Shown here piece by piece: positions 3,274-15,888 of a stretch of DNA of 16,449 nt. The notes beneath the pieces are model-generated. The model ran no database searches, was not told the DNA's origin, and was given only the letters and a program-made list of their open reading frames with translations. A program made the position numbers and the translations under genes. The DNA is from Promethearchaeota archaeon. GTDB taxonomy: Archaea; Asgardarchaeota; Lokiarchaeia; Sigyniarchaeales; SOKP01. Numbering within the stretch: the first letter of the stretch is position 1; every line of letters starts with the position of its first letter. The stretch is from positions 1 through 16,449 of the forward strand of contig JBHLMQ010000061.1 in assembly GCA_048938005.1 (NCBI GenBank), written 5' to 3'.

Positions 3274-4338
3274 TTAATATAAATTTGAGCGAGATTTGAT
3301 ATAGATCCGATTTCGTGAATCTATTAACTGTAAAGAACCCCATTTATCAAATAATGTCTCTGTTTTTCCTAAAATTAATATTCCATTCTCAACTAATCGA
3401 TTTTCAATAATTTTTAAGAATTTGTCTCGATTTGTACGATTAAAATAAATTAATAAATATCTACAGAAAATGATATCATATCTATAAGGCTTTTCATGAC
3501 TTTTTGTCACATCTTCAACTAGAAATTCAATTTTATTTTTTATTTTCTCATCGATTAAATTATAGTATCCAAAATAGGTTTTTTTTTTTGTGAAATATTT
3601 CTTTTCGAAATAATCTGAAATTTCTTTCATTGAATCATTAGTATAGATTCCCTTTTTTGCTTTTTCTATAGCTTCATAAGCAATATCAGAGGCTATAATT
3701 CTATACTTAGGAAACCGTGGAACTTGCGATTCCAGATTATTTAAAATCATTGCTATTGAATATGGTTCTTCACCAGTAGCGCATGGACAAGACCAAATAT
3801 TAATATCATTATTTACACCAGAACCTAACTTTAATTTCTTATAAAAAGAGAGTCGGTTGAGAAACACGAAGATATCTGTATAAAATCTTTCTGGTTTATC
3901 ATTTAATCTCCTATTTTTAAGCGAATTTTTAGCAGCATTATTTTTTGTTCTAAATTGAGCTAATTTTTTTGGATTTGGCCGTATTCCTGCTCTGAGCTTA
4001 TTCTTATTTACATTTAATCCATGAATAAATAAATCTTGAAAAGTCTCAAATATATCATAATCTCGAAAAAAGAAAGAATAATTTACTGTAAACTTTTCAG
4101 TAAATTTTTTAATTTCAGCACTATTTGATGATATGTATTTATAATATTGATTGAGTGTTTTACAGGGGACTCTTATCATTCGTGATTTTATACGTTTTTC
4201 AATAAATTTCTTATTATAATATTCAAAATTTAGCCCTGTTTTCTTTTTTAACAACTGAACTAATGAGTTATAAGAATTTTCATCAACAGTGATGTCATTA
4301 ATAAGATTCCATTTATTAAGTTCAGAATCGAAACTCAT
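3274..4338 (-). CDS. cheR: CheR-family protein-glutamate O-methyltransferase with an internal basic insertion
   Basis: N-terminal helical domain (KKTGLNF..Y..K...RI..R), FTVNYSFFFRD, IWSCPCATGEEPYSIAM, IIASDI, YDIIFCRYLLIYF and LILGKTETL. Confidence 0.88.
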   Translation of the reverse strand: MSFDSELNKWNLINDITVDENSYNSLVQLLKKKTGLNFEYYNKKFIEKRIKSRMIRVPCKTLNQYYKYISSNSAEIKKFTEKFTVNYSFFFRDYDIFETFQDLFIHGLNVNKNKLRAGIRPNPKKLAQFRTKNNAAKNSLKNRRLNDKPERFYTDIFVFLNRLSFYKKLKLGSGVNNDINIWSCPCATGEEPYSIAMILNNLESQVPRFPKYRIIASDIAYEAIEKAKKGIYTNDSMKEISDYFEKKYFTKKKTYFGYYNLIDEKIKNKIEFLVEDVTKSHEKPYRYDIIFCRYLLIYFNRTNRDKFLKIIENRLVENGILILGKTETLFDKWGSLQLIDSRNRIYIKSRSNLY

Positions 4339-4515: not shown

Positions 4516-6876
4516 TTAAATTACAGTATGTTCAGTTCTTTTAATTATTTCATCCTGCAAAGTTGACCCTAGATTCACAAAATAGTCACTATAACCTGCA
4601 ACTCGTACTATCAAGTTTCTATATCTTTCTGGATTTTTCTGTGCCGCTCGTAAAGTATCTTCTGAAACCACATTGAATTGAATGTGATGACCATTCATTT
4701 CAAAATATGCTCTAATTAGATGAACTAATGCATTAATCATATTTTGATCTGAAAAAAAATGAGGTGAAAATTTTTGATTCAATAAAGTTCCTCCCGTTCG
4801 TAGATGATCTATTTTACCAGCAGATTTTATTACAGCGGTAGGGCCTTTAACATCCATTCCTTGAACTGGAGATATACCTTCTGACAATGGTGTAAATGCT
4901 TTCCTACCATCAGGAGTTGCAGCTGTTACTTTACCAAAATATATATGAACGGTTGTTGGTAAAAGATTAATTCTATGCTCACCACCTCTTGTATTAGGAC
5001 GTCCATTTATTGCATCATATACAATTTCAAACACCTGCTGAGTAATTGAATCTGCATAATCATCATCATTTCCATATTTAGGGGTTTTATATAATAATTT
5101 TTGTCTAAGATCTTCATATCCATTAAAATTATTTTTTAGGGCTTCTAAAAGGTTCTCGATATTTAAGATATTATTATCATATATGTTATACTTTAATGAA
5201 GTTAAACAATCTGTTATACTCCCCATACCTACGATTTGTATATAAGAAGTATTATATTTCGCACCCCCATTATTATAGTCCTTACCTTTCTTAATACAAT
5301 TTTCAATTATTATAGATAAGAAGGGAGAAGGATTTTGAGTCCAAATCCGTTCAATAATTTGGTTGCCTTTTATTTTAATATTTACAAAATGATTAATTTG
5401 TTTTGAATATGCTTCCATTAACTCATTAAAACTTTTAAAATTTGTAGGATTTCCAGTTTTTAATCCAAACTGCTTTTTAGTTAGAGGATCAAAACCATTA
5501 TTAAGAGTGATTTCGAGAATTTTCACTAAATTAAAATATCCTGTTAAAATATATGCTTCTTTCCCGAACGCACCAGCTTCAACGCAGCCACTTGCTCCAC
5601 CATTTCGGGCATCCTCTATAGACTTGCCTTGTCTTGTTAATTCTTGAATAATTGCATCACAATTGAACACAGATGGTTGGCCAAAACCAGTCTTAACAAT
5701 CTCAAGTGCTCTTTTTAAAAACCTATCTGGAGTTTTAGTACTAATCTGAACATTACTACTTGGTTGCAGTATTCTCATTTCTTGAATGACATCTAGGAGA
5801 ATATAGGACATTTCATTTACTCCTTCAGAACCATCCTCTTTAAGTCCACCGAGGTTTATATTGCAGAAATCAGTATAAGTATTGCTTTCTTCAGCAGTAA
5901 CACCAACCTTTGGAGGTGCAGGTTGATTATTAAACTTCACCCAAAAAGCTTGAAGAAGTTCAAATGCTTCTTCTTTTGTCAATATTTCATTAACAATATC
6001 ATTATTATAGAAAGGATAAAGATGTTGATCTAAGCGCCCTGGATTGAACGAGTCCCATGTATTATATTCAGTTATTACACCCAAATGGATGAACCAATAG
6101 TGTTGGAGTGCTTCCCAAAAAGTTCTAGGTGCGTGAGCAGGTACATGAGAACAAATCTCAGATATTTTTTCCAATTCACTTTTTCTTTTTGGATCTAACT
6201 CTTGGTTAGCTAATTGTTTAGCTTTTTGAGAATGGCGTTCAGCAAAAGCAATTATTCCATCAGCAGCGATATTCATAGCAATTAATTGTTCTCTCTTATT
6301 ATAGGCTTCGGGATCATTATAAAAATCTAATTGTTCTATACTTTCAGAAATTTCTTGTTTAAAGTCTAAAAATCCCTTATTCCATATATTTTTCCCAGCA
6401 ACTGTATGTCCTGGTGCTCTCTGTTCCATAAACTCTGTAAAAATTCCTGCTTCGTAGGCATCAATCCATTTTTCATCAACTTGAGTGAAGATTTTATCTC
6501 GAATAGACCGTCCTTTCCAGAAGGGAATAATTTTATTTGCTGCCTTTTGTCTTGTTTCTTCAGATACCTTAAAAGAAATTTTTTCACGTGTGTTCAAGAT
6601 ATCTAAATCATGTAAACTATGACAACAAACTTCTGGATATGTAGGAGTTGCTTTTGGCTCTGGACCGCGTTCACCAACAATTAATTCACCCTCATTAATA
6701 CATATTTTCTTGTTATCCAATATATATTTAAATGCTTTTGCTCTCGCAACTGGAGGAGTATAAATATGAGCTGCTCCAGTTTCATAGAATTCCGTTATTA
6801 ATAGTGCCCGTTCCAAGGAAATATATGGAATTGCTTCACGACTTTGTTTTCGTAAACTCTTAATTCGCTCATTCAT
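4516..6876 (-). CDS. hypD: Glycyl radical enzyme, trans-4-hydroxy-L-proline dehydratase (HypD) type; intact copy 1, 786 aa
   Basis: Cys loop SGCVEAGAFGKEAYILTGY and Gly loop RVAGYS. HypD-type substrate motifs FTEFMEQRAPGHTV, WDSFNPGRLDQ, ESNTYTDF and LPTTVH match those recalled for Clostridioides difficile HypD. Confidence 0.88.
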   Translation of the reverse strand: MNERIKSLRKQSREAIPYISLERALLITEFYETGAAHIYTPPVARAKAFKYILDNKKICINEGELIVGERGPEPKATPTYPEVCCHSLHDLDILNTREKISFKVSEETRQKAANKIIPFWKGRSIRDKIFTQVDEKWIDAYEAGIFTEFMEQRAPGHTVAGKNIWNKGFLDFKQEISESIEQLDFYNDPEAYNKREQLIAMNIAADGIIAFAERHSQKAKQLANQELDPKRKSELEKISEICSHVPAHAPRTFWEALQHYWFIHLGVITEYNTWDSFNPGRLDQHLYPFYNNDIVNEILTKEEAFELLQAFWVKFNNQPAPPKVGVTAEESNTYTDFCNINLGGLKEDGSEGVNEMSYILLDVIQEMRILQPSSNVQISTKTPDRFLKRALEIVKTGFGQPSVFNCDAIIQELTRQGKSIEDARNGGASGCVEAGAFGKEAYILTGYFNLVKILEITLNNGFDPLTKKQFGLKTGNPTNFKSFNELMEAYSKQINHFVNIKIKGNQIIERIWTQNPSPFLSIIIENCIKKGKDYNNGGAKYNTSYIQIVGMGSITDCLTSLKYNIYDNNILNIENLLEALKNNFNGYEDLRQKLLYKTPKYGNDDDYADSITQQVFEIVYDAINGRPNTRGGEHRINLLPTTVHIYFGKVTAATPDGRKAFTPLSEGISPVQGMDVKGPTAVIKSAGKIDHLRTGGTLLNQKFSPHFFSDQNMINALVHLIRAYFEMNGHHIQFNVVSEDTLRAAQKNPERYRNLIVRVAGYSDYFVNLGSTLQDEIIKRTEHTVI
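4852..5409 (+). repeat. Direct repeat copy A: 558 bp identical to 10130-10687, inside hypD copy 1
   Basis: Line-by-line comparison at offset 5278 shows no mismatch. First mismatches are 4851/10129 (C/T) and 5410/10688 (T/C). Confidence 0.95.
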
Positions 6877-6930
6877 TATTTAACTATTAACTGAGATATT
6901 AAATCCAGATAATTAATGAAAATAAAGAAT

Positions 6931-6957
6931 CGGTAGAATAAAAAAATAATCCTACCG
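6931..6957. promoter_or_regulatory. Imperfect hairpin CGGTAG...CTACCG in the hypD copy 1 leader
   Basis: GC-containing arms around an A-rich loop, 55-81 nt upstream of the ATG, with T-rich sequence following on both strands. Confidence 0.3.
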
Positions 6958-6987
6958 CACTTTTTAGTAAAGAAATTTTTTTATTTC

Positions 6988-7024
6988 TGAAGTATTCAAT
7001 GATACATATTCATAATATACTTCA
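6988..7024. promoter_or_regulatory. 15-bp imperfect inverted repeat in the hypD1/DUF362 divergent promoter region
   Basis: TGAAGTATTCAATGA (6988-7002) vs reverse complement of 7010-7024, TGAAGTATATTATGA: 12/15 matches with a 7-nt spacer. Adjacent to the TATA-like TTTATATATAA at 7029-7039. Confidence 0.35.
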
Positions 7025-7304
7025 TGAATTTATATATAATTAAATCGAAAAGTGGAAAAATGCAAAGAGAAAAAATTGAAAATTAATAGTAATTTAGGCT
7101 ACTTCATAAATGTCTTACTCTTCTGATCTTTCTAATAAAACTCAATTTTTTTTCAATTCGTTTAAACTTAATTTATCTTCTAATATAATCAACGAACGTT
7201 TTTCCATTTCAGTTTTATTCTGAAATTGTAAATATTTAAAAATAAAAAAGTATGAATATTTACTAATATCTAAACATAATATATAGCGAAAGGATAATTT
7301 CAAC

Positions 7305-9695
7305 ATGAATAATCAAAAAACGCTAAGTTTTAATTCCTCCTTGGGAAGACAGGAGAGAGATTCTTCTGGTTCTCAAGTTGGAGTTGTTAAAATGGATGCT
7401 TTTAAATCATATGTGGGTATCGGTGAATTACTTCAAAAATTTATAAATACTTCCGATCAAGAAAGTTGGAATGAAATAAAAGCGAAAATCGATTATACTT
7501 ACAATAACCTCGATTATGCACTCTCTCCATTGGAGCAAACCACTTCTTTTATCCATCAGATGAAGGAAAAATTAGAAAAGGGTCAGAAACTTCTATTTAA
7601 GCCTAATATTGTTTGTCCTAGCTGTATAAACTCGCAAACTCATGGTTCAGTTTTTGCTGGACGAGGTAGTAATGCTTGTACGGATTGGGCATTTATTGCT
7701 GCCTTAATGAGATGGTTTCATGAAAAGGCTGGAATAAGTTATTACCAGATGTCCCTTGGCGAAGCTTCAACTGCAACTACTTCAACAGCTAATTTATTTT
7801 CAAAAATTAATCCAGAAGAGAAGGAAATTACTCCTGAAGCTGTTATCGAAGGAAAATGTGGAGATTTTTACGGCGGGTGGGGATTTTATTTTGTTCGTAA
7901 GTACCTTGCCGAATCATTGAAAGAAGGTGAGAGTGATGATCCTCTCAAGGGTTATGAAGAGAGTCTTAACGGGACTTATATACCACCTGGACTCGTTACT
8001 GATAAATTGATGGTATATGATCTGAACCGAATATATGATGACCCGAGTAAGGGAAGGGCGTGCGAGATACCAGATGGTGTCAATTACAAATCGATCGTCC
8101 TTCATAAAGTTATTACTGGTGGTAATCTAGATAACCTTGAAGATATGAGAGCTTATCCCGGATGCATTTTGATCAATGTTCCTAAAGTTAAAGTTCATTC
8201 TTCTGCTCTTTTCTCAAATATCATAAAAAACCTAAGTATGGGGCTTTATCCAATGCTATATGCCAGCAAAGGAGATAAGAAATGGGATTACGCTAGACCT
8301 CACGGTACTAAGATCGTTGGTTTGAAAGTCATACCACATCAAGTCTGGATTCCTGAAATGGATGATGAAAGTTCCCTGCCCAAAAAGGATGCTGAAGGTA
8401 ATTATATCTTAAAAAAAACTGGCGGACTTACAGCTACAATGATTGACATTATTAAAGCAGTGGACAATCTGGGTATTTTGATAGTTCATGTAGTTGATGG
8501 GATTGAAATGATTAATTTTGATCATACAGGACGTGGATTAAAAACTGCTGAAGGGATGGTTTTTGCAGGTTTGGATCCCGTTGCTACCGATCTCTTATGC
8601 GCCCGATATATGTTCTCCAACGTCCCGCTCAAAGAGTCTCTTGAAGTTAGATTGGAGGGTGGAACTGCTTGTGGATTCCCTCAGAAAGTACCCATACCCA
8701 TAAAGGATGGAAAAAATATCATATCTACAGCAGGATATGATTGTCCCCTAGCTCGAGATATTACATTTGAGAGAGCAGAAAAGAGAGGTTTAGGGCAAAT
8801 GAATTATTATGTAATGGGTTATGATATTTTAACCGATTCACGAATGATATCATTAAACGGGCACTTAGGCTCGGTAAAAAACGATAATTTTTCAGATGTA
8901 GTAACTAAAACCCTTTTTTATAATATTGTTAAGGTACCTTGGGATCTACAGCGTACAAGCTTCAATTATTTAGCTGCTGTAGATGAATTAGAGGGTACAA
9001 AATTAAAGGAAGAATTTCTTCAGTATTATGATGAAGATAATGATGGCGTGGTCTCTTATGAGGAATTTGGAAAAAAAGGATCAAAAACATTAAATAGTCA
9101 TTTTGTTGCTGACTACGTTTCTTTAATGGGTAAAGAAAAGCTGGGTTATCTAAAAGGACATTTTAAACTAATGACTTCAACGTATAGATACAGCAACAAG
9201 CAGAATAATTCCGATAATCACGATATAATGGAAGAGAGTTTACTTGCTACGACTTGTCGTTTTGCTTTTATAATTTCTCAAGTTAATGTGGATATTCCTG
9301 ATCCTTTCATTCCAGGATTAACGTACGGCAAAGGGAAATGGCCTAGTATTCAGTTTGTAGGGTTTTTTCAAATAGGAAATATGATTTATGGTCGAAGCTT
9401 TCCAGGCTCAATCGCTTATCCAAGCCTTTACAGTATTGCTCTATTTTATGCTGATTTGACTCAAAACGGAGGCAAATACGCTGGTAAATTACGCAGTCAT
9501 CCAGATCCTCAAGCTATTAGTAATTATGTTTCTGATGTGGCAAGCAATGAGATAGATCCCCTAGATTTTGTTTTATACGTACCAACAGGATTTAATACTT
9601 TATCTGGAGTAAAAATTCCGAATGTTGAAATCACAGATGATCCTTTGAAGATATTCACTGCAAATTTTCAAAATAGTAAAGAGATCTGGTCGTAA
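7305..9695 (+). CDS. Large DUF362-domain protein (796 aa) with a C-terminal extension carrying an EF-hand loop
   Basis: DUF362-type motifs LLFKPNIV, LGEAS, INVPKVKVH, IKNLSMG, VVDGI and GLDPVATDLLCARYM. EF-hand loop DEDNDGVVSYEE at residues 576-587. Confidence 0.78.
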   Translation: MNNQKTLSFNSSLGRQERDSSGSQVGVVKMDAFKSYVGIGELLQKFINTSDQESWNEIKAKIDYTYNNLDYALSPLEQTTSFIHQMKEKLEKGQKLLFKPNIVCPSCINSQTHGSVFAGRGSNACTDWAFIAALMRWFHEKAGISYYQMSLGEASTATTSTANLFSKINPEEKEITPEAVIEGKCGDFYGGWGFYFVRKYLAESLKEGESDDPLKGYEESLNGTYIPPGLVTDKLMVYDLNRIYDDPSKGRACEIPDGVNYKSIVLHKVITGGNLDNLEDMRAYPGCILINVPKVKVHSSALFSNIIKNLSMGLYPMLYASKGDKKWDYARPHGTKIVGLKVIPHQVWIPEMDDESSLPKKDAEGNYILKKTGGLTATMIDIIKAVDNLGILIVHVVDGIEMINFDHTGRGLKTAEGMVFAGLDPVATDLLCARYMFSNVPLKESLEVRLEGGTACGFPQKVPIPIKDGKNIISTAGYDCPLARDITFERAEKRGLGQMNYYVMGYDILTDSRMISLNGHLGSVKNDNFSDVVTKTLFYNIVKVPWDLQRTSFNYLAAVDELEGTKLKEEFLQYYDEDNDGVVSYEEFGKKGSKTLNSHFVADYVSLMGKEKLGYLKGHFKLMTSTYRYSNKQNNSDNHDIMEESLLATTCRFAFIISQVNVDIPDPFIPGLTYGKGKWPSIQFVGFFQIGNMIYGRSFPGSIAYPSLYSIALFYADLTQNGGKYAGKLRSHPDPQAISNYVSDVASNEIDPLDFVLYVPTGFNTLSGVKIPNVEITDDPLKIFTANFQNSKEIWS

Positions 9696-9775
9696 ACTCT
9701 TAAAAGAGTTAAACTTGATTTCCAATTTGCTTTTTTATAGGAAATTCGGATATTTTTAACTGAATATTCTGTCGA

Positions 9776-9790
9776 AGGAAAAAAAAAGAA
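9776..9790 (-). terminator. Oligo-T tract immediately after the full-length hypD copy 2 stop
   Basis: The minus strand reads TAG CAGTTCTTTTTTTTTCC (A9 at 9779-9787 on plus), just 3' of TAG at 9796-9794. Confidence 0.5.
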
Positions 9791-9793
9791 CTG

Positions 9794-12154
9794 CTATAAA
9801 GCAATATGCTCGGTTCTTCTAATAATCTCTTCTTGTAAGTCTTGTCCTAAGTTTACAAAATAGTCACTATATCCCGCAACTCGCACAATTAGTTCTCTAT
9901 ATTTTTCCGGATCTTTCTGTGCGGCACGTAAAGTATCTGCTGAAACTACATTAAATTATATATGATGACCATTCATTTCGAAATATGCTCTAACTAAATG
10001 GGCTAAATTATTAATACTATTTTCCTCTGAAAAAAAACGAGGTGCAAATTTTTGGTTTAATAAAGTACCGCCTGTTCTTAGATGATCTATTTTTCCAGCA
10101 GATTTAATGACAGCAGTTGGACCGTGAATATCCATTCCTTGAACTGGAGATATACCTTCTGACAATGGTGTAAATGCTTTCCTACCATCAGGAGTTGCAG
10201 CTGTTACTTTACCAAAATATATATGAACGGTTGTTGGTAAAAGATTAATTCTATGCTCACCACCTCTTGTATTAGGACGTCCATTTATTGCATCATATAC
10301 AATTTCAAACACCTGCTGAGTAATTGAATCTGCATAATCATCATCATTTCCATATTTAGGGGTTTTATATAATAATTTTTGTCTAAGATCTTCATATCCA
10401 TTAAAATTATTTTTTAGGGCTTCTAAAAGGTTCTCGATATTTAAGATATTATTATCATATATGTTATACTTTAATGAAGTTAAACAATCTGTTATACTCC
10501 CCATACCTACGATTTGTATATAAGAAGTATTATATTTCGCACCCCCATTATTATAGTCCTTACCTTTCTTAATACAATTTTCAATTATTATAGATAAGAA
10601 GGGAGAAGGATTTTGAGTCCAAATCCGTTCAATAATTTGGTTGCCTTTTATTTTAATATTTACAAAATGATTAATTTGTTTTGAATACGCTTCCATTAAC
10701 TCATCAAAATTTTTAAAAACTATGGGATCCCCCGTTTTTAACCCAATCTGTTTTCCAGATGCAGGATCTATTCCATTATTAAGAGTGATTTCGAGGATTT
10801 TCACTAAATTAAAATATCCTGTTAGTATATAAGCTTCTTTTCCAAAAGCTCCAGCTTCTACACATCCACTTGCCCCGGCTTTTCTTGCATCGACCAATGA
10901 CTTTCCTTGGCGTATAAGTTCTTGAATAATCGCATCAGCATTAAATACAGAAGGTTGACCAAATCCAGTTTTTATAATTTTAATAGCTCGTTTTAAAAAA
11001 TCATCAGGAGTTAATTTACTAATTTGCACATTACTACTTGGTTGTACGATGCGCATTTCTTCTATTACATTCAGAAGAATATATGATAATTCATTAACAC
11101 CATCAGAACCATCTTCTTTTAGTCCACCTATATTAATATTGCAAAAGTCTGTATAAGTGCTACTTTCCTCAGCGGTAACACCTACTTTAGGTGGAGCTGG
11201 TTGGTTATTAAATTTTATCCAGAACGCTTGAAGCAATTCTACGGCTTCCTCTTTAGTGAGGTTACCCTCGGAAATATCCTTTTTGAAAAAAGGATATAAA
11301 TGCTGATCGAGACGTCCTGGATTGAAAGAATCCCAAGTATTATACTCAGTTATAACACCCAGATGAATAAACCAATAATGCTGTAATGCTTCCCAAAAAT
11401 TTCTCGGAGCATTTGCTGGTACATAGGAACAAATTTCAAAAATTTTTTCTAATTCTTTCTTTCTTATATGATCAGTTTCCTTTTCAGCTAAAATTTTCAC
11501 TTTTTCAGCATATCTATTAGCATAAACGATAATTGCGTCTGCTGCTATGCTCATAGCATTCAATTCTTCTCTCTTATCAAATGCATCAGGATCGGTAAAA
11601 AAATCTAATTCTTCTATAGAATTTTTAATTAATTCTTTAAACTCTAAAAATCCCATACTCCAAATATTATCTCCTGCCACAGTATGTCCTGGTGCTCGTT
11701 GTTCCATAAATTCAGTAAATATTCCTGCTTCATAGGCATCAATCCATTCTCGGTCAACTTGGGAAAAAATCTTCTCTCTAATCGTTTTGCCTTTCCAATA
11801 AGGAATAATAATTTCTTTTGTTTCTTTCCTTGATTTCTCTGATACTTTAAATGATATTTTTTCTCGAGTATTTAAAATTTCTAAGTCTTGTAAACTGTGA
11901 CAGCATACTTCAGGATATGTTGGAGTTGCTTTTGGTCCTGGACCACGCTCTCCAACAATTAACTCTCCTTCATTAATACAGATTTCTTTATTCTTTAAGA
12001 TATATTCGAATGCTTTTGCTCTAGCTATTGCAGGAGAGAATTTATGAGTTGCACCAGTTTTAAAGAATTCGGTTATTAATAATGCTCGTTCTAAAGAAAG
12101 ATAAGGAATTGCTTCACGACTTTGAGTACGTAGTTTTTTTATTCTTTCATTCAT
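9794..12154 (-). pseudogene. hypD: HypD-type glycyl radical enzyme copy 2, interrupted by an in-frame TAA at codon 733 (nonsense allele, read-through or sequence error)
   Basis: The ORF track ends at 9956 (732 aa, ...MNGHHI*). The same frame continues [53 protein letters not shown] to TAG 9794, for a 2361-nt gene, the same length as copy 1. GCVE and the HypD substrate motifs are intact. Confidence 0.85.
10130..10687 (+). repeat. Direct repeat copy B: 558 bp identical to 4852-5409, inside hypD copy 2
   Basis: Direct sequence comparison. Flanking paralogous sequence has frequent synonymous differences. Confidence 0.95.
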
Positions 12155-12265: not shown

Positions 12266-14098
12266 TTATTTTTTAGAGCTCTGAACTTCTGAAGTCGTAT
12301 AAGTTGGATGCCAATCCAGACTTTGATGTTCAAAATACTGCTTATATAATTGAGCATATTTTCCACCTCTAGCAAGTAAAGACTTATGATCACCTTCTTC
12401 AATGATTTCCCCATGATCCATGACTAATATTCGATCAGTATTAACTACTGTTGACAATCTATGTGCTATAACAATTGAGGTTCGATTAGATAATAGAACA
12501 TCTAGAGCTTCTTGAATTACTGCTTCTGTGTATGCATCTACACTTGAGGTTGCCTCATCAAGAATTAGGATTTTTGGATTAGTTAAGAGTGCCCGAGCAA
12601 AACTAATTAATTGTCTTTGGCCTGCTGAAACTCCCTTTCCTCTCTCACCTACTTGTGTTTGAAATCCTTCTGGTAAATATTCAATTAATTCTTCTGCATG
12701 GACTGCCTTAACAGCTCTCCATAAATCCTCCTCTGCCGCATCCTGTCTCCCATATCGGATATTTTCTTCTATAGTTCCTGAAAATAAAAAGACATCCTGT
12801 GGAACCATACCAAGGTTTTTTCTATATGATTCTAAGGTCATATCTCTGATATCAATTCCATCAATCTTAATTGATCCTCCTTGAAATTCATAATACCTCG
12901 CAAGTAGTGAAACTAAAGATGTTTTTCCAGAACCGGTATGTCCAACTATAGCAAGTTTCTCGCCTTTTCCTATTTTGAGATTTAAACCTTTAAAAACCCA
13001 CTCATTGCTATTATAACTAAAATCGACATCTTCAAATTCAATATCTCCTTCAAGCTCCTCCACATCAATAGCATTAGGATTTTGGATAACATTTGGTTTT
13101 GAATCAAGAATTTCTAGAATGCGTTCGTATGCAGCCATACCTGTACTGAATTGAGGGAAAAAAGTTGCGAGTACCATAATAGGACGGAAAAATGTTGGAA
13201 GATAAAGATAAAATACAAACAGCCTCCCGGGACTTAACAAATCTCTAAAGACAAATTGACCTCCTATATATATTATAATAATAAATGTAAGAGTAGAGAT
13301 AAAACCAAGCAGCCTCCTCCACAAATGAGTCACGGCTGTCAATCTAAACCCCGATTTAAAATAATTTTTATTTATCTCATCAAATTGTTCAGAAATCATT
13401 GATTCTTGCCCATAACTTTTACAAACATGTATACCCTCGACTAATTCAACCATAGATGTATTGACATTATCTAAAGCTTTCCTATACCTTCTACTTACTC
13501 TTCTTGCGAGCTTTCTAAGGGAAACCATCAACAATAAGATAATGGGAACTGTTGCAAGGGCAATAAGAGCCAGAAAAGTATTTAACCAGATAAGGATACC
13601 AAGAGTTAAACCACTCAGAAAAAGATTTCCAATTGTCTCCACTATTAAAAATGTTATATCACCAAAATCAACGACATCGTTAGTAACTCTTGTGTTTAAT
13701 CCACCAGTTTGATGATTATCGAAAAAACTCATATCTTGCTCTTGCAACTTATCAAAAATGTCCATTCGGAGTCGTTCTGCAAAAAAGGGAACAAATCTAG
13801 CTATCTCTTTATATTGTAGATAAAACATCAACCATATTACACCATATAATATAATATAAAGGAATGAAGCACCAAAAATTAGAAGAAAATTCGGTTCGAT
13901 CTTAATAAACTCATCTACAATATACGAAAGCATTAGAGGATTAAGTATATCTGCTCCTGCCGAAATTACAATGAAAAGTGCTATACGAATAACACTTTTT
14001 TTAAAAGGATTAATTCTCTTGACATATCGAACAAACAATTCCCTATCGGAATAATTTCGTTTTCGTTCTTCTTTCATTAATCCCGCATAAAGGCCCAT
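12266..14098 (-). CDS. Heterodimeric type IV ABC exporter half-transporter (TMD+NBD), TM288-like subunit
   Basis: N-terminal TM domain, Walker A GHTGSGKTS, Q-loop VPQD, degenerate signature VSAGQRQ, Walker B ILILDE and H-loop IAHR. Confidence 0.92.
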   Translation of the reverse strand: MGLYAGLMKEERKRNYSDRELFVRYVKRINPFKKSVIRIALFIVISAGADILNPLMLSYIVDEFIKIEPNFLLIFGASFLYIILYGVIWLMFYLQYKEIARFVPFFAERLRMDIFDKLQEQDMSFFDNHQTGGLNTRVTNDVVDFGDITFLIVETIGNLFLSGLTLGILIWLNTFLALIALATVPIILLLMVSLRKLARRVSRRYRKALDNVNTSMVELVEGIHVCKSYGQESMISEQFDEINKNYFKSGFRLTAVTHLWRRLLGFISTLTFIIIIYIGGQFVFRDLLSPGRLFVFYLYLPTFFRPIMVLATFFPQFSTGMAAYERILEILDSKPNVIQNPNAIDVEELEGDIEFEDVDFSYNSNEWVFKGLNLKIGKGEKLAIVGHTGSGKTSLVSLLARYYEFQGGSIKIDGIDIRDMTLESYRKNLGMVPQDVFLFSGTIEENIRYGRQDAAEEDLWRAVKAVHAEELIEYLPEGFQTQVGERGKGVSAGQRQLISFARALLTNPKILILDEATSSVDAYTEAVIQEALDVLLSNRTSIVIAHRLSTVVNTDRILVMDHGEIIEEGDHKSLLARGGKYAQLYKQYFEHQSLDWHPTYTTSEVQSSKK

Positions 14099-14127
14099 CC
14101 TTAATCATCTCTCTCTTTTTTTAAGAA

Positions 14128-15888
14128 TTATACTTGATTGAGTATTTTTTTACCAAAAATTCGTCGATAATCCTCTGAACTCTGTAACAATTCATTATGC
14201 TTCCCTTCTGCTACAATTTTTCCATGCCTAAGTACAATTATTTTATCTGAAGTTCTTATTGTATGTAAACGATGAGTAATTATTATCGTAGTCCTATTTC
14301 TTAAGATATTTTCCATGGCAAGACCTATTTTCTCTTCAGTTTCACTATCAACTGCGGAAACAGAGTCATCAAAAATGAGTATTTTTGGATCTGTCAAAAA
14401 TGCTCGAGCAATGGCTATGCGTTGTTTTTCTCCTCCAGAAAGTCGTATTCCCCTTTCACCAACAATAGACTCATATCCGTTAGGGCGCTGTTTAACAAAA
14501 TCATCAACTTGAGCTAACTCCGCAGCTTTAAATATCTCTTCTTCAGTAGCATCAGGTTTGCCGAATTTGATGTTTTCTTTTATAGTTCTTGGATAAAGAT
14601 AAATTTCTTGCTCAATATAACCAATATGTTTTCTTAAAGCTTCACGAGGATAATTTCTTATATCTACTCCATCTAAAAGAATTGATCCTTCTTGTGGTTT
14701 ATAAAGAGATAAAATTAATTTTGCTAAAGTTGATTTCCCACATCCAGTAGGACCAACAAGAGCAACTCTTTCAAATGGTTCAATACTAAAGGTTATATTG
14801 CTTAGGGTTGGTCGAGGATTTTTAATTTCATTCTCATGAGTAAATGATACATTATTGAATTCAATTTTTCCTTTGAATTTCTCTGGCCATTCTACAGTCG
14901 TATCTTTATCTGTCTCACTTTCTCCTCTAGAAAGCGAAGCATATAATCGCGAAGCGGCAGCAAATCCATTCATCATATCGTTTGTAGACCAATGAATCAT
15001 CCTTGTAGGTTCGATAAGTGCTATAAGAAGGATATTGATAGCGACTAGGTCTCCTACTGTTAGTGAATTTTGATAAACTAAAAAGGAGCATATTAACAAC
15101 GTGCATCCTATCAATAGATAAAGGATTAGTAAAGCATAATATCTAGCTTGGACTATGTTTTGCCCAACCATATTATTCTTGTAATCAATTACAGACCTTC
15201 TAAACTTTTTTCTTTCTAACCTTTCAGCATTAAAAGCTCTGACTACATTTGCACCACTTATTGAGTCTTGTAGCACTACGGCTAAATTTGAATACTTTTT
15301 CATTCGGTTAGTAACAAAAGGAGAAAGATTTTTTCGATAATACAAAATAAAATAAAAGTATAAAACTATGAAAGGCAAACTAAATAAAGCTAAACGATAG
15401 TCTAAAACTTCGATTAACAAATATAAAGTTATGAATATTTGGATGAAAGGATAAATAAAAAAACTTCCGTGGGCGACCATTGTATTAATTACTCGAACAT
15501 CATTCGTAGCAAATGCAAGTAAATCCCCAGTTCGAATATTATCGTGAAAATTTAACGTTTTTAACTGAATTGTGTCAAAAAATTCTTGTCTCATATTTTT
15601 TTCAATTTTCAAGCCAAAAAAATGCCCCAGCATCATTACCAAATAATCAGATAAATTATATGCAAGAGATACAGAAAGTCCGATAACAAGTAATATCAGT
15701 AAATTACCTAAATTTCGAGTTATTAAGACATTGTCAATGATACTACCAATTATTATTGGCATTATAGTGACACCTAAACTTACCACAAAGATTCCTATAA
15801 TAACTAACATTACAAGATATTTTTGTCTAAGGAGGTGTTTTAGAAGCCATTTCCTATATTCTTTATTCTTTTCCTTATCTTTTTTCAT
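14128..15888 (-). CDS. Heterodimeric type IV ABC exporter half-transporter (TMD+NBD), TM287-like subunit
   Basis: TM domain, Walker A GPTGCGKST, signature LSGGEKQR, Walker B ILIFDD (catalytic Glu replaced by Asp) and H-loop ITHR. Lies 29 bp upstream of its partner. Confidence 0.92.
   Translation of the reverse strand: MKKDKEKNKEYRKWLLKHLLRQKYLVMLVIIGIFVVSLGVTIMPIIIGSIIDNVLITRNLGNLLILLVIGLSVSLAYNLSDYLVMMLGHFFGLKIEKNMRQEFFDTIQLKTLNFHDNIRTGDLLAFATNDVRVINTMVAHGSFFIYPFIQIFITLYLLIEVLDYRLALFSLPFIVLYFYFILYYRKNLSPFVTNRMKKYSNLAVVLQDSISGANVVRAFNAERLERKKFRRSVIDYKNNMVGQNIVQARYYALLILYLLIGCTLLICSFLVYQNSLTVGDLVAINILLIALIEPTRMIHWSTNDMMNGFAAASRLYASLSRGESETDKDTTVEWPEKFKGKIEFNNVSFTHENEIKNPRPTLSNITFSIEPFERVALVGPTGCGKSTLAKLILSLYKPQEGSILLDGVDIRNYPREALRKHIGYIEQEIYLYPRTIKENIKFGKPDATEEEIFKAAELAQVDDFVKQRPNGYESIVGERGIRLSGGEKQRIAIARAFLTDPKILIFDDSVSAVDSETEEKIGLAMENILRNRTTIIITHRLHTIRTSDKIIVLRHGKIVAEGKHNELLQSSEDYRRIFGKKILNQV

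Follow-up and report, generated by a model that had tools for sequence, protein, structure and literature searches.

The closest solved structure to the genes considered here is that of the trans-4-hydroxy-L-proline dehydratase HypD from Clostridioides difficile (PDB 6vxc/6vxe), a glycyl radical enzyme with catalytic and substrate-binding residues listed in PMC7077986. In a related system, the protein GrcA (YfiD) rescues cleaved PFL. According to a 2026 review (PMC13450708), formate lyases are the only enzymes known to have such spare-part proteins, their existence for non-PFL glycyl radical enzymes is undetermined, and a function has yet to be characterised for any PFL-like glycyl radical enzyme of archaea. 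Here we describe a hypD gene (copy 2) of a Promethearchaeota archaeon, which is interrupted by an in-frame TAA 28 codons ahead of the radical glycine. The window analysed, 16,449 nucleotides in length, is the entire contig C2 (JBHLMQ010000061.1) of a 3.72-Mb metagenome-assembled genome (MAG; 101 contigs, 29.8% GC, 95% completeness, 7.23% contamination), of which the sediment metagenome run X1 is the probable read source. We consider it probable that copy 2 carries a real, unique, consensus-supported and very recent CAA-to-TAA change at Gln733, in a redundant and recombining paralogue, and that it represents a young pseudogene or else a null allele segregating in the population.

The affiliation of copy 2, and of the intact copy 1 located in the same window (4516..6876, minus strand; 786 residues), is clear. 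Both exceed the cut-off (1100) of the NCBIfam HypD equivalog model NF043068, with 1309.7 bits for copy 1 and 1203.1 bits for the 732-residue product of copy 2, and both can be aligned end to end with 6vxc (1062.6 and 1043.5 bits, respectively). When the published active-site positions were transferred through this alignment, equivalents of Arg156, His160, Asp278, Lys326, Ser334, Asp339, Phe340, Cys434, Glu436, Tyr450, Thr645 and Gly765 were found in both window copies: 12/12 in copy 1 and in copy 2 when read through, and 11/11 of those preceding the stop in the 732-residue product. The locus differs from that of C. difficile in its archaeal (Asgard) host, in the interruption of copy 2, and in that no activating-enzyme gene adjoins any of the three hypD copies of the genome. 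The third copy, which is also intact, lies on contig C64. In copies 1 and 3 the catalytic barrel and the glycyl radical domain are located on one chain, which is not the case in copy 2, where the TAA separates Cys431 from Gly761. The genome contains eight Gly_radical matches in total, all in frames of 787-836 residues, three of which are of the hypD type. Against these eight frames stand two matches above the cut-off of the activating-enzyme model TIGR02494: one (C97:31415-32293) directly follows a non-HypD glycyl-radical frame and the other (C65:26182-27063) is placed approximately 3.5 kb from such a frame; neither is situated by a hypD gene.

The disrupted frame of copy 2 (9956..12154, minus strand) consists of 732 codons, ending in GHHI, followed by the premature TAA (codon 733, 9958-9956), 53 further open codons (9955-9797) and a TAG (9796-9794). 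With the latter included, copies 1 and 2 both measure 2361 nt and can be aligned gap-free, and codon 733 of copy 1 is CAA. The severed tail of copy 2 (9794..9955, minus strand) shares 42 of its 53 residues with copy 1, retains the RVAGYS motif (the Gly761 codon being 9874-9872) and terminates with EHIAL at the homologous stop. Taken alone, it matches positions 73-106 of the 106 of the Pfam Gly_radical domain (E 2.9e-13), which demonstrates that the open frame after the stop reflects homology rather than chance. Six bases past the TAG (CAGTTC between) there is a run of nine T residues (9779..9787, minus strand), which is probably an archaeal oligo-T terminator. An earlier note on this DNA, made from its letters alone, had described both the TAA in place of CAA and the tail with these properties (open codons, identity, glycyl loop, homologous stop and T9 tract); the frame reading and the gap-free alignment bear out each of these points.

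The stop was found to be unique to copy 2. In a gap-free alignment of 22 full-length sequences, comprising the three hypD copies of this genome and a single hypD per genome for 19 genomes of the genus, codon 733 reads CAA in 20 cases and CAG in one, and TAA occurs in copy 2 only; copy 1, copy 3 and the closest orthologue (L010) are all among the sequences compared. The comparison with orthologues suggested in the earlier note was thus made, and none of the other 21 aligned sequences has a stop at this codon. A similar picture emerged from a database of 5.8 billion protein clusters, in which the best 120 full-length relatives are all 784-797 residues long (none has 732) and the closest is 91% identical; for the last 111 residues of copy 2 the closest database relative shows 87% identity. 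Among the protein relatives searched, no second stop-bearing strain was found. The exact 732-residue product was not found in a collection of 15 billion proteins that does list copy 1, attributed to the window itself (P0001); this absence would fit a source annotation without a protein call for copy 2. The same collection holds a second row of 786 residues (P0065, without sources), which is probably copy 3.

Apart from the stop, no damage was seen in copy 2, whether in invariant columns, in the ratio of non-synonymous to synonymous substitution rates (dN/dS), in polarised changes or in active-site residues. At otherwise invariant columns it has four unique changes (D362N, K381L, I721V and the stop itself), while the number in each of the other 21 sequences ranges from 1 to 12. 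Over nucleotides 1-1350 it differs from L010 (genome G024) by 13 synonymous and 17 non-synonymous changes (dN/dS 0.335). Polarisation of the latter against the other 20 sequences assigned six derived changes to copy 2 and six to L010, with four ambiguous, and hence revealed no excess in copy 2. In the tail, dN/dS calculated against eight relatives is 0.07-0.15, a value that records the history of the sequence before the stop arose. Since no decay other than the stop was found, the mutation would be young, or else the sequence has been refreshed by recombination. These data support the very recent C-to-T nonsense mutation that the earlier note had put forward, alongside a base-call error, as the simplest explanation: a single transition is sufficient to derive the TAA from the CAA of 20/22 sequences, and no further damage has followed. 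Copy 2 therefore shows what is expected of a recent pseudogene, namely a disabling change unique to its lineage and no secondary lesions.

Recombination has left clear traces in this gene. A 558-bp tract of copy 2 (nucleotides 1468-2025 of the coding sequence; 10130..10687, minus strand) is 100% identical to the corresponding tract of copy 1 (4852..5409, minus strand), while outside it the two copies share 76.8% identity. The tract ends 170 nt before the stop and, from the sequences compared, indicates a footprint of recent gene conversion or crossover. Moreover, copy 2 as a whole is a mosaic. Its 150-nt windows up to nucleotide 1350 are 95-99% identical to L010, after which the similarity falls, and the last 336 nt (including the stop) show only 72-74% identity to L010, the closest sequences there being L017, L027, L012 and L013 (82-87%). 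L027 and L017, together with L024, also rank among the relatives most similar to copy 1 in its 5' part. By sliding-window identity, the hypD family looks mosaic across the genus. The earlier note, made without knowledge of the Asgard host, had missed both the identical tract and the mosaic nature of the gene.

The course of events that we favour would be as follows. The locus would be a lineage-specific duplication, with the order ABC1, hypD2, DUF362, hypD1, CheR replacing the arrangement of its relatives (ABC1 or an AMP-binding gene, one hypD, CheR). A segment of approximately 5.3 kb (5410-10129), flanked on both sides by the identical tract, may have been acquired through a single crossover between the resident hypD and an incoming circle carrying a second hypD and the DUF362 gene. 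Alternatively, unequal recombination might have been followed by gene conversion. The TAA would have arisen in copy 2 and now be carried by all or most of the sampled population. The gene affected is a redundant one, two intact hypD genes being present in the genome, one of them 2.9 kb away. Translation would end at the TAA, giving a 732-residue protein devoid of the last 54 residues, and because such a product lacks the Gly761 radical site it could be neither activated nor catalytic. The tail is probably still transcribed, as an untranslated 3' end reaching the T9 run, and would appear intact because there has been too little time for further change.

The reality of the stop in the sampled population was assessed with the assembled contigs of four sequencing runs, which were aligned to positions 7000-10129 of the window. 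A contig of run X1 (record 8; 1712 nt, depth 13.5) matches positions 8448-10129 with no differences and no gaps. As this separately built contig carries the identical TAA, the stop is not an artefact of the MAG assembler, and with a consensus depth of about 13-fold a random error at this site is unlikely.

Several observations weigh against our interpretation and should be borne in mind. As X1 is the probable source of the MAG, its contig stems from the same reads and is not independent of them. The read support is at the level of a consensus and is drawn from contigs, which drop minority variants. A contig of a related strain from run X2 (record 16; 9614-9998, 17 differences) spans position 9958; the 40 variant places listed, of 306 in all, include none at 9956-9958. 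The two-copy arrangement across the 558-bp repeat comes solely from the MAG assembly. Finally, the dN/dS between copy 2 and L010 exceeds the long-term value of approximately 0.07-0.1, which could point to some relaxed constraint or only to the excess usual between close sequences.

Among the competing explanations the least improbable is that of an artefact, in which the TAA is a systematic sequencing or consensus error, or the contig blends strains that live side by side, and the true codon of the organism is CAA. Its appeal lies in the number of contigs and the contamination of the MAG, in the mosaic structure of the gene, and in the presence of related strains in the sediment sample itself: variant contigs with 90-99% identity occur in runs X1 and X2, and contigs of X1 that have loose ends (at 9960 and at 10041) reveal other nearby sequence contexts in the same sample. 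One of them follows the tail as far as 9960 and then diverges into unlike sequence. However, the 30-letter loose end at this position gave no match in the MAG with up to three mismatches allowed, and it belongs to another organism or strain. A blend or error would also have to be reconciled with the separate contig that agrees with the window at all 1682 bases around the stop, and with the fact that every 31-mer spanning the TAA site must be present in the X1 reads. We therefore regard an artefact as unlikely. The base-call error that the earlier note had allowed for is weakened by a contig identical at every base, albeit one from the same reads, and is unlikely.

A related candidate, a simple swap mis-assembly of the two exits from the repeat, was rejected. 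The direct repeats lie on one contig, so the alternatives to be swapped are a two-copy chromosome or a hybrid gene accompanied by a 5.3-kb circle, and either way one hypD bears the TAA. The X1 contig covering 8448-10129 has approximately 30 more letters past 10129, and its end there is probably a break at the repeat boundary. The reads support a loop in the assembly graph, and this loop may also permit a single hybrid hypD together with the 5.3-kb circle; under both arrangements the TAA is present in one hypD and lacking in one.

Leaky or conditional read-through, in which some ribosomes would decode the UAA by a near-cognate tRNA and produce full-length HypD at a low level, had been mentioned as an option in the earlier note. 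When UAA is decoded by a near-cognate tRNA, Gln is often incorporated, and here this would bring back the wild-type residue. The undamaged, in-frame tail and the full set of catalytic residues are in agreement with such a mechanism, but the stop itself is not: it is present in none of the other 21 aligned sequences, and TAA is the main stop codon of this genome, ending 1145 of 1546 open frames of at least 300 codons (74%), 435 of them as TAA-T, the context found at 9958. Nor did we detect a tRNA with a tta anticodon among the 9 tRNAs (no introns) or 16 tRNAs (introns allowed) reported by ARAGORN, which is a weak scan, or a recoding element at 9600-10000, where the two Rfam matches were both far below their gathering scores. 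A stop that is not conserved, and is formed by an ordinary stop codon in a common stop context, gives no support to programmed read-through or to reassignment of TAA, and we consider this explanation quite improbable. In the same scan, most tRNAs of this genome escaped ARAGORN, and a tRNA-Sec (anticodon tca) was reported on the complementary strand at 101872-101964 of the MAG.

A more novel reading may also be envisaged, in which the stop is not simple decay, in one of three ways. The tail might be kept usable because tract-wise gene conversion with copy 1, of which the 558-bp tract upstream of the stop would be a footprint, can re-activate the paralogue; read-through of the UAA, probably restoring Gln733, might supply a second HypD isoform at low dose; or the truncated body might be completed by a spare part of the HypD type, which, if true, would be the first case outside the formate lyases. 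We judge this reading very improbable.

The last alternative, likewise raised in the earlier note, is a functional split, with the 732-residue body acting as a radical-less heterodimer partner of copy 1, or being completed in trans in the manner of GrcA/YfiD. The rescue of cleaved PFL by GrcA (PMC13450708) provides a precedent, and the tail of copy 2 likewise comprises a glycyl loop (RVAGYS) and the C-terminal strand. Furthermore, the NCBIfam GrcA3 model (78 positions) aligns to residues 711-784 of copy 1 with 70.9 bits, and metagenomes contain short glycyl-radical proteins of the HypD type, 73-79 residues long and with their own Met start (P0141, P0163, P0183, P0148 and P0157).

In contrast to GrcA/YfiD, however, the tail is not a separate gene, has no start codon and lacks the first third of the domain. 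The complete list of in-frame start-like codons within it is ATT756, GTG757, ATT777, ATT778 and ATT784; GTG757 is preceded by no ATG, GTG or TTG, and codon 756 by no ATT, so the earliest possible starts are only 4-5 codons ahead of Gly761. The tail begins approximately 22 residues past the point at which the stand-alone proteins of 73-79 residues start, and its partial coverage of the Pfam domain was given above. Its 53 residues compare with 78-126 positions in the GrcA3, GrcA2 and GrcA profiles of NCBIfam; the cut-offs are 158, 145 and 170, even the longer copy 1 region scores only 70.9, 44.2 and 36.0 bits, and the tail falls far below. The search for stand-alone Gly_radical proteins that the earlier note had recommended was carried out and yielded none in the MAG (95% complete), all eight matches being situated in the long frames. 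The arrangement is also absent from the 21 aligned sequences and from the best 120 database relatives, and the spare parts described so far in the review belong to formate lyases. Completion in trans thus found no support, and a functional split is hardly credible.

In the short metagenomic proteins mentioned above the Met start corresponds approximately to HypD residues 708-714; they contain a full glycyl loop of the HypD type and they resemble GrcA3. They may be spare parts for glycyl radical enzymes other than PFL.

Considered as a recent null mutation, copy 2 resembles any ordinary young pseudogene of a redundant paralogue: it likewise has one unique stop, no other lesion and intact paralogues. 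Sister species also show independent losses of hypD, and nothing that we found sets copy 2 apart. Of the 24 genomes of the genus that were searched, 22 contain a hypD match, either full-length or partial; in one of these, G005, the gene (L017) is interrupted at codon 440, where TAA replaces GAA. The complete genome G006 contains no full-length copy, but only a 3' hypD relic of 182 residues with an intact glycyl loop (L063, G006:C1:2041690-2042235), and the best of its other glycyl-radical matches has 36% identity. In G013, a short and weak DNA match was all that was obtained. Taken at the level of sequence, hypD appears expendable in the genus, with independent losses in G006 and L017. It may be added that the cultured relative did not grow on L-hydroxyproline (PMC11316595).

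The finding itself is therefore an ordinary one, i.e. one more young pseudogene or segregating null in a family that is freely duplicated, recombined and lost by the genus. Annotators should flag copy 2 as disrupted and attribute the hydroxyproline-dehydratase capacity to copies 1 and 3. Of greater interest than the stop are the way in which the locus has recombined and how abundant HypD-type enzymes are in this Asgard genus, nearly all of whose genomes carry them.

The genes surrounding the two hypD copies illustrate this history. The complete order in the window is AMP-binding, ABC2, ABC1, hypD2, DUF362 (opposite strand), hypD1, CheR, steroid-dehydrogenase-like, DUF998 and HAD. Positions 12266..15888 (minus strand), upstream of copy 2, hold the two ABC transporter genes, of which ABC1 shows 96% identity to the gene lying upstream of L010. 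The CheR-type methyltransferase gene, recognised by its domain match, is located downstream of copy 1 (3274..4338, minus strand). In the 19 loci of relatives there is one hypD, placed after an AMP-binding gene in 11 loci or after ABC1 in three. Its other flank is formed by CheR, steroid-dehydrogenase-like, DUF998 or HAD genes in 14/19 loci, and CheR is found within 1.5 kb of the single hypD in 9/19.

The gene separating the hypD copies (7305..9695, plus strand) is convergent with copy 2 and encodes a protein of 796 residues, in which a DUF362 match (residues 288-434) is the sole domain detected and no NCBIfam model is matched. Of 53 other genomes of the genus, eight encode this protein, and at none of 32 other loci (11 + 21) does its gene adjoin hypD. 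The 21 loci come from a genome and metagenome scan with the protein, in which the identities ranged from 35 to 81%. The protein was also encountered in two Deltaproteobacteria MAG records (56-57% identity). Insertion of DUF362 between hypD copies was observed only in the lineage of the window and in a relative from run X4.

In the contig of this relative (record 25, 94% identical) the DUF362 gene is accompanied by the tail only as far as 9936, followed by 1327 unrelated bases and then by the 3' end of another hypD. This arrangement indicates that tail fragments beside DUF362 also exist as plain orphans. Together with the X1 loose end at 9960, it shows that the tail occurs in other contexts, both in the same and in other samples.

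A minor observation concerns the 98-nt spacer (9696-9793) that separates the DUF362 gene from the stop of hypD2, and for which no second copy was found in the MAG. It includes an element of approximately 64 nt (9704-9768), assigned to no Rfam family, which has matches of 77-92% on contigs of five relatives (G019, G021, G017, G024 and G004), four of them devoid of the DUF362 gene.

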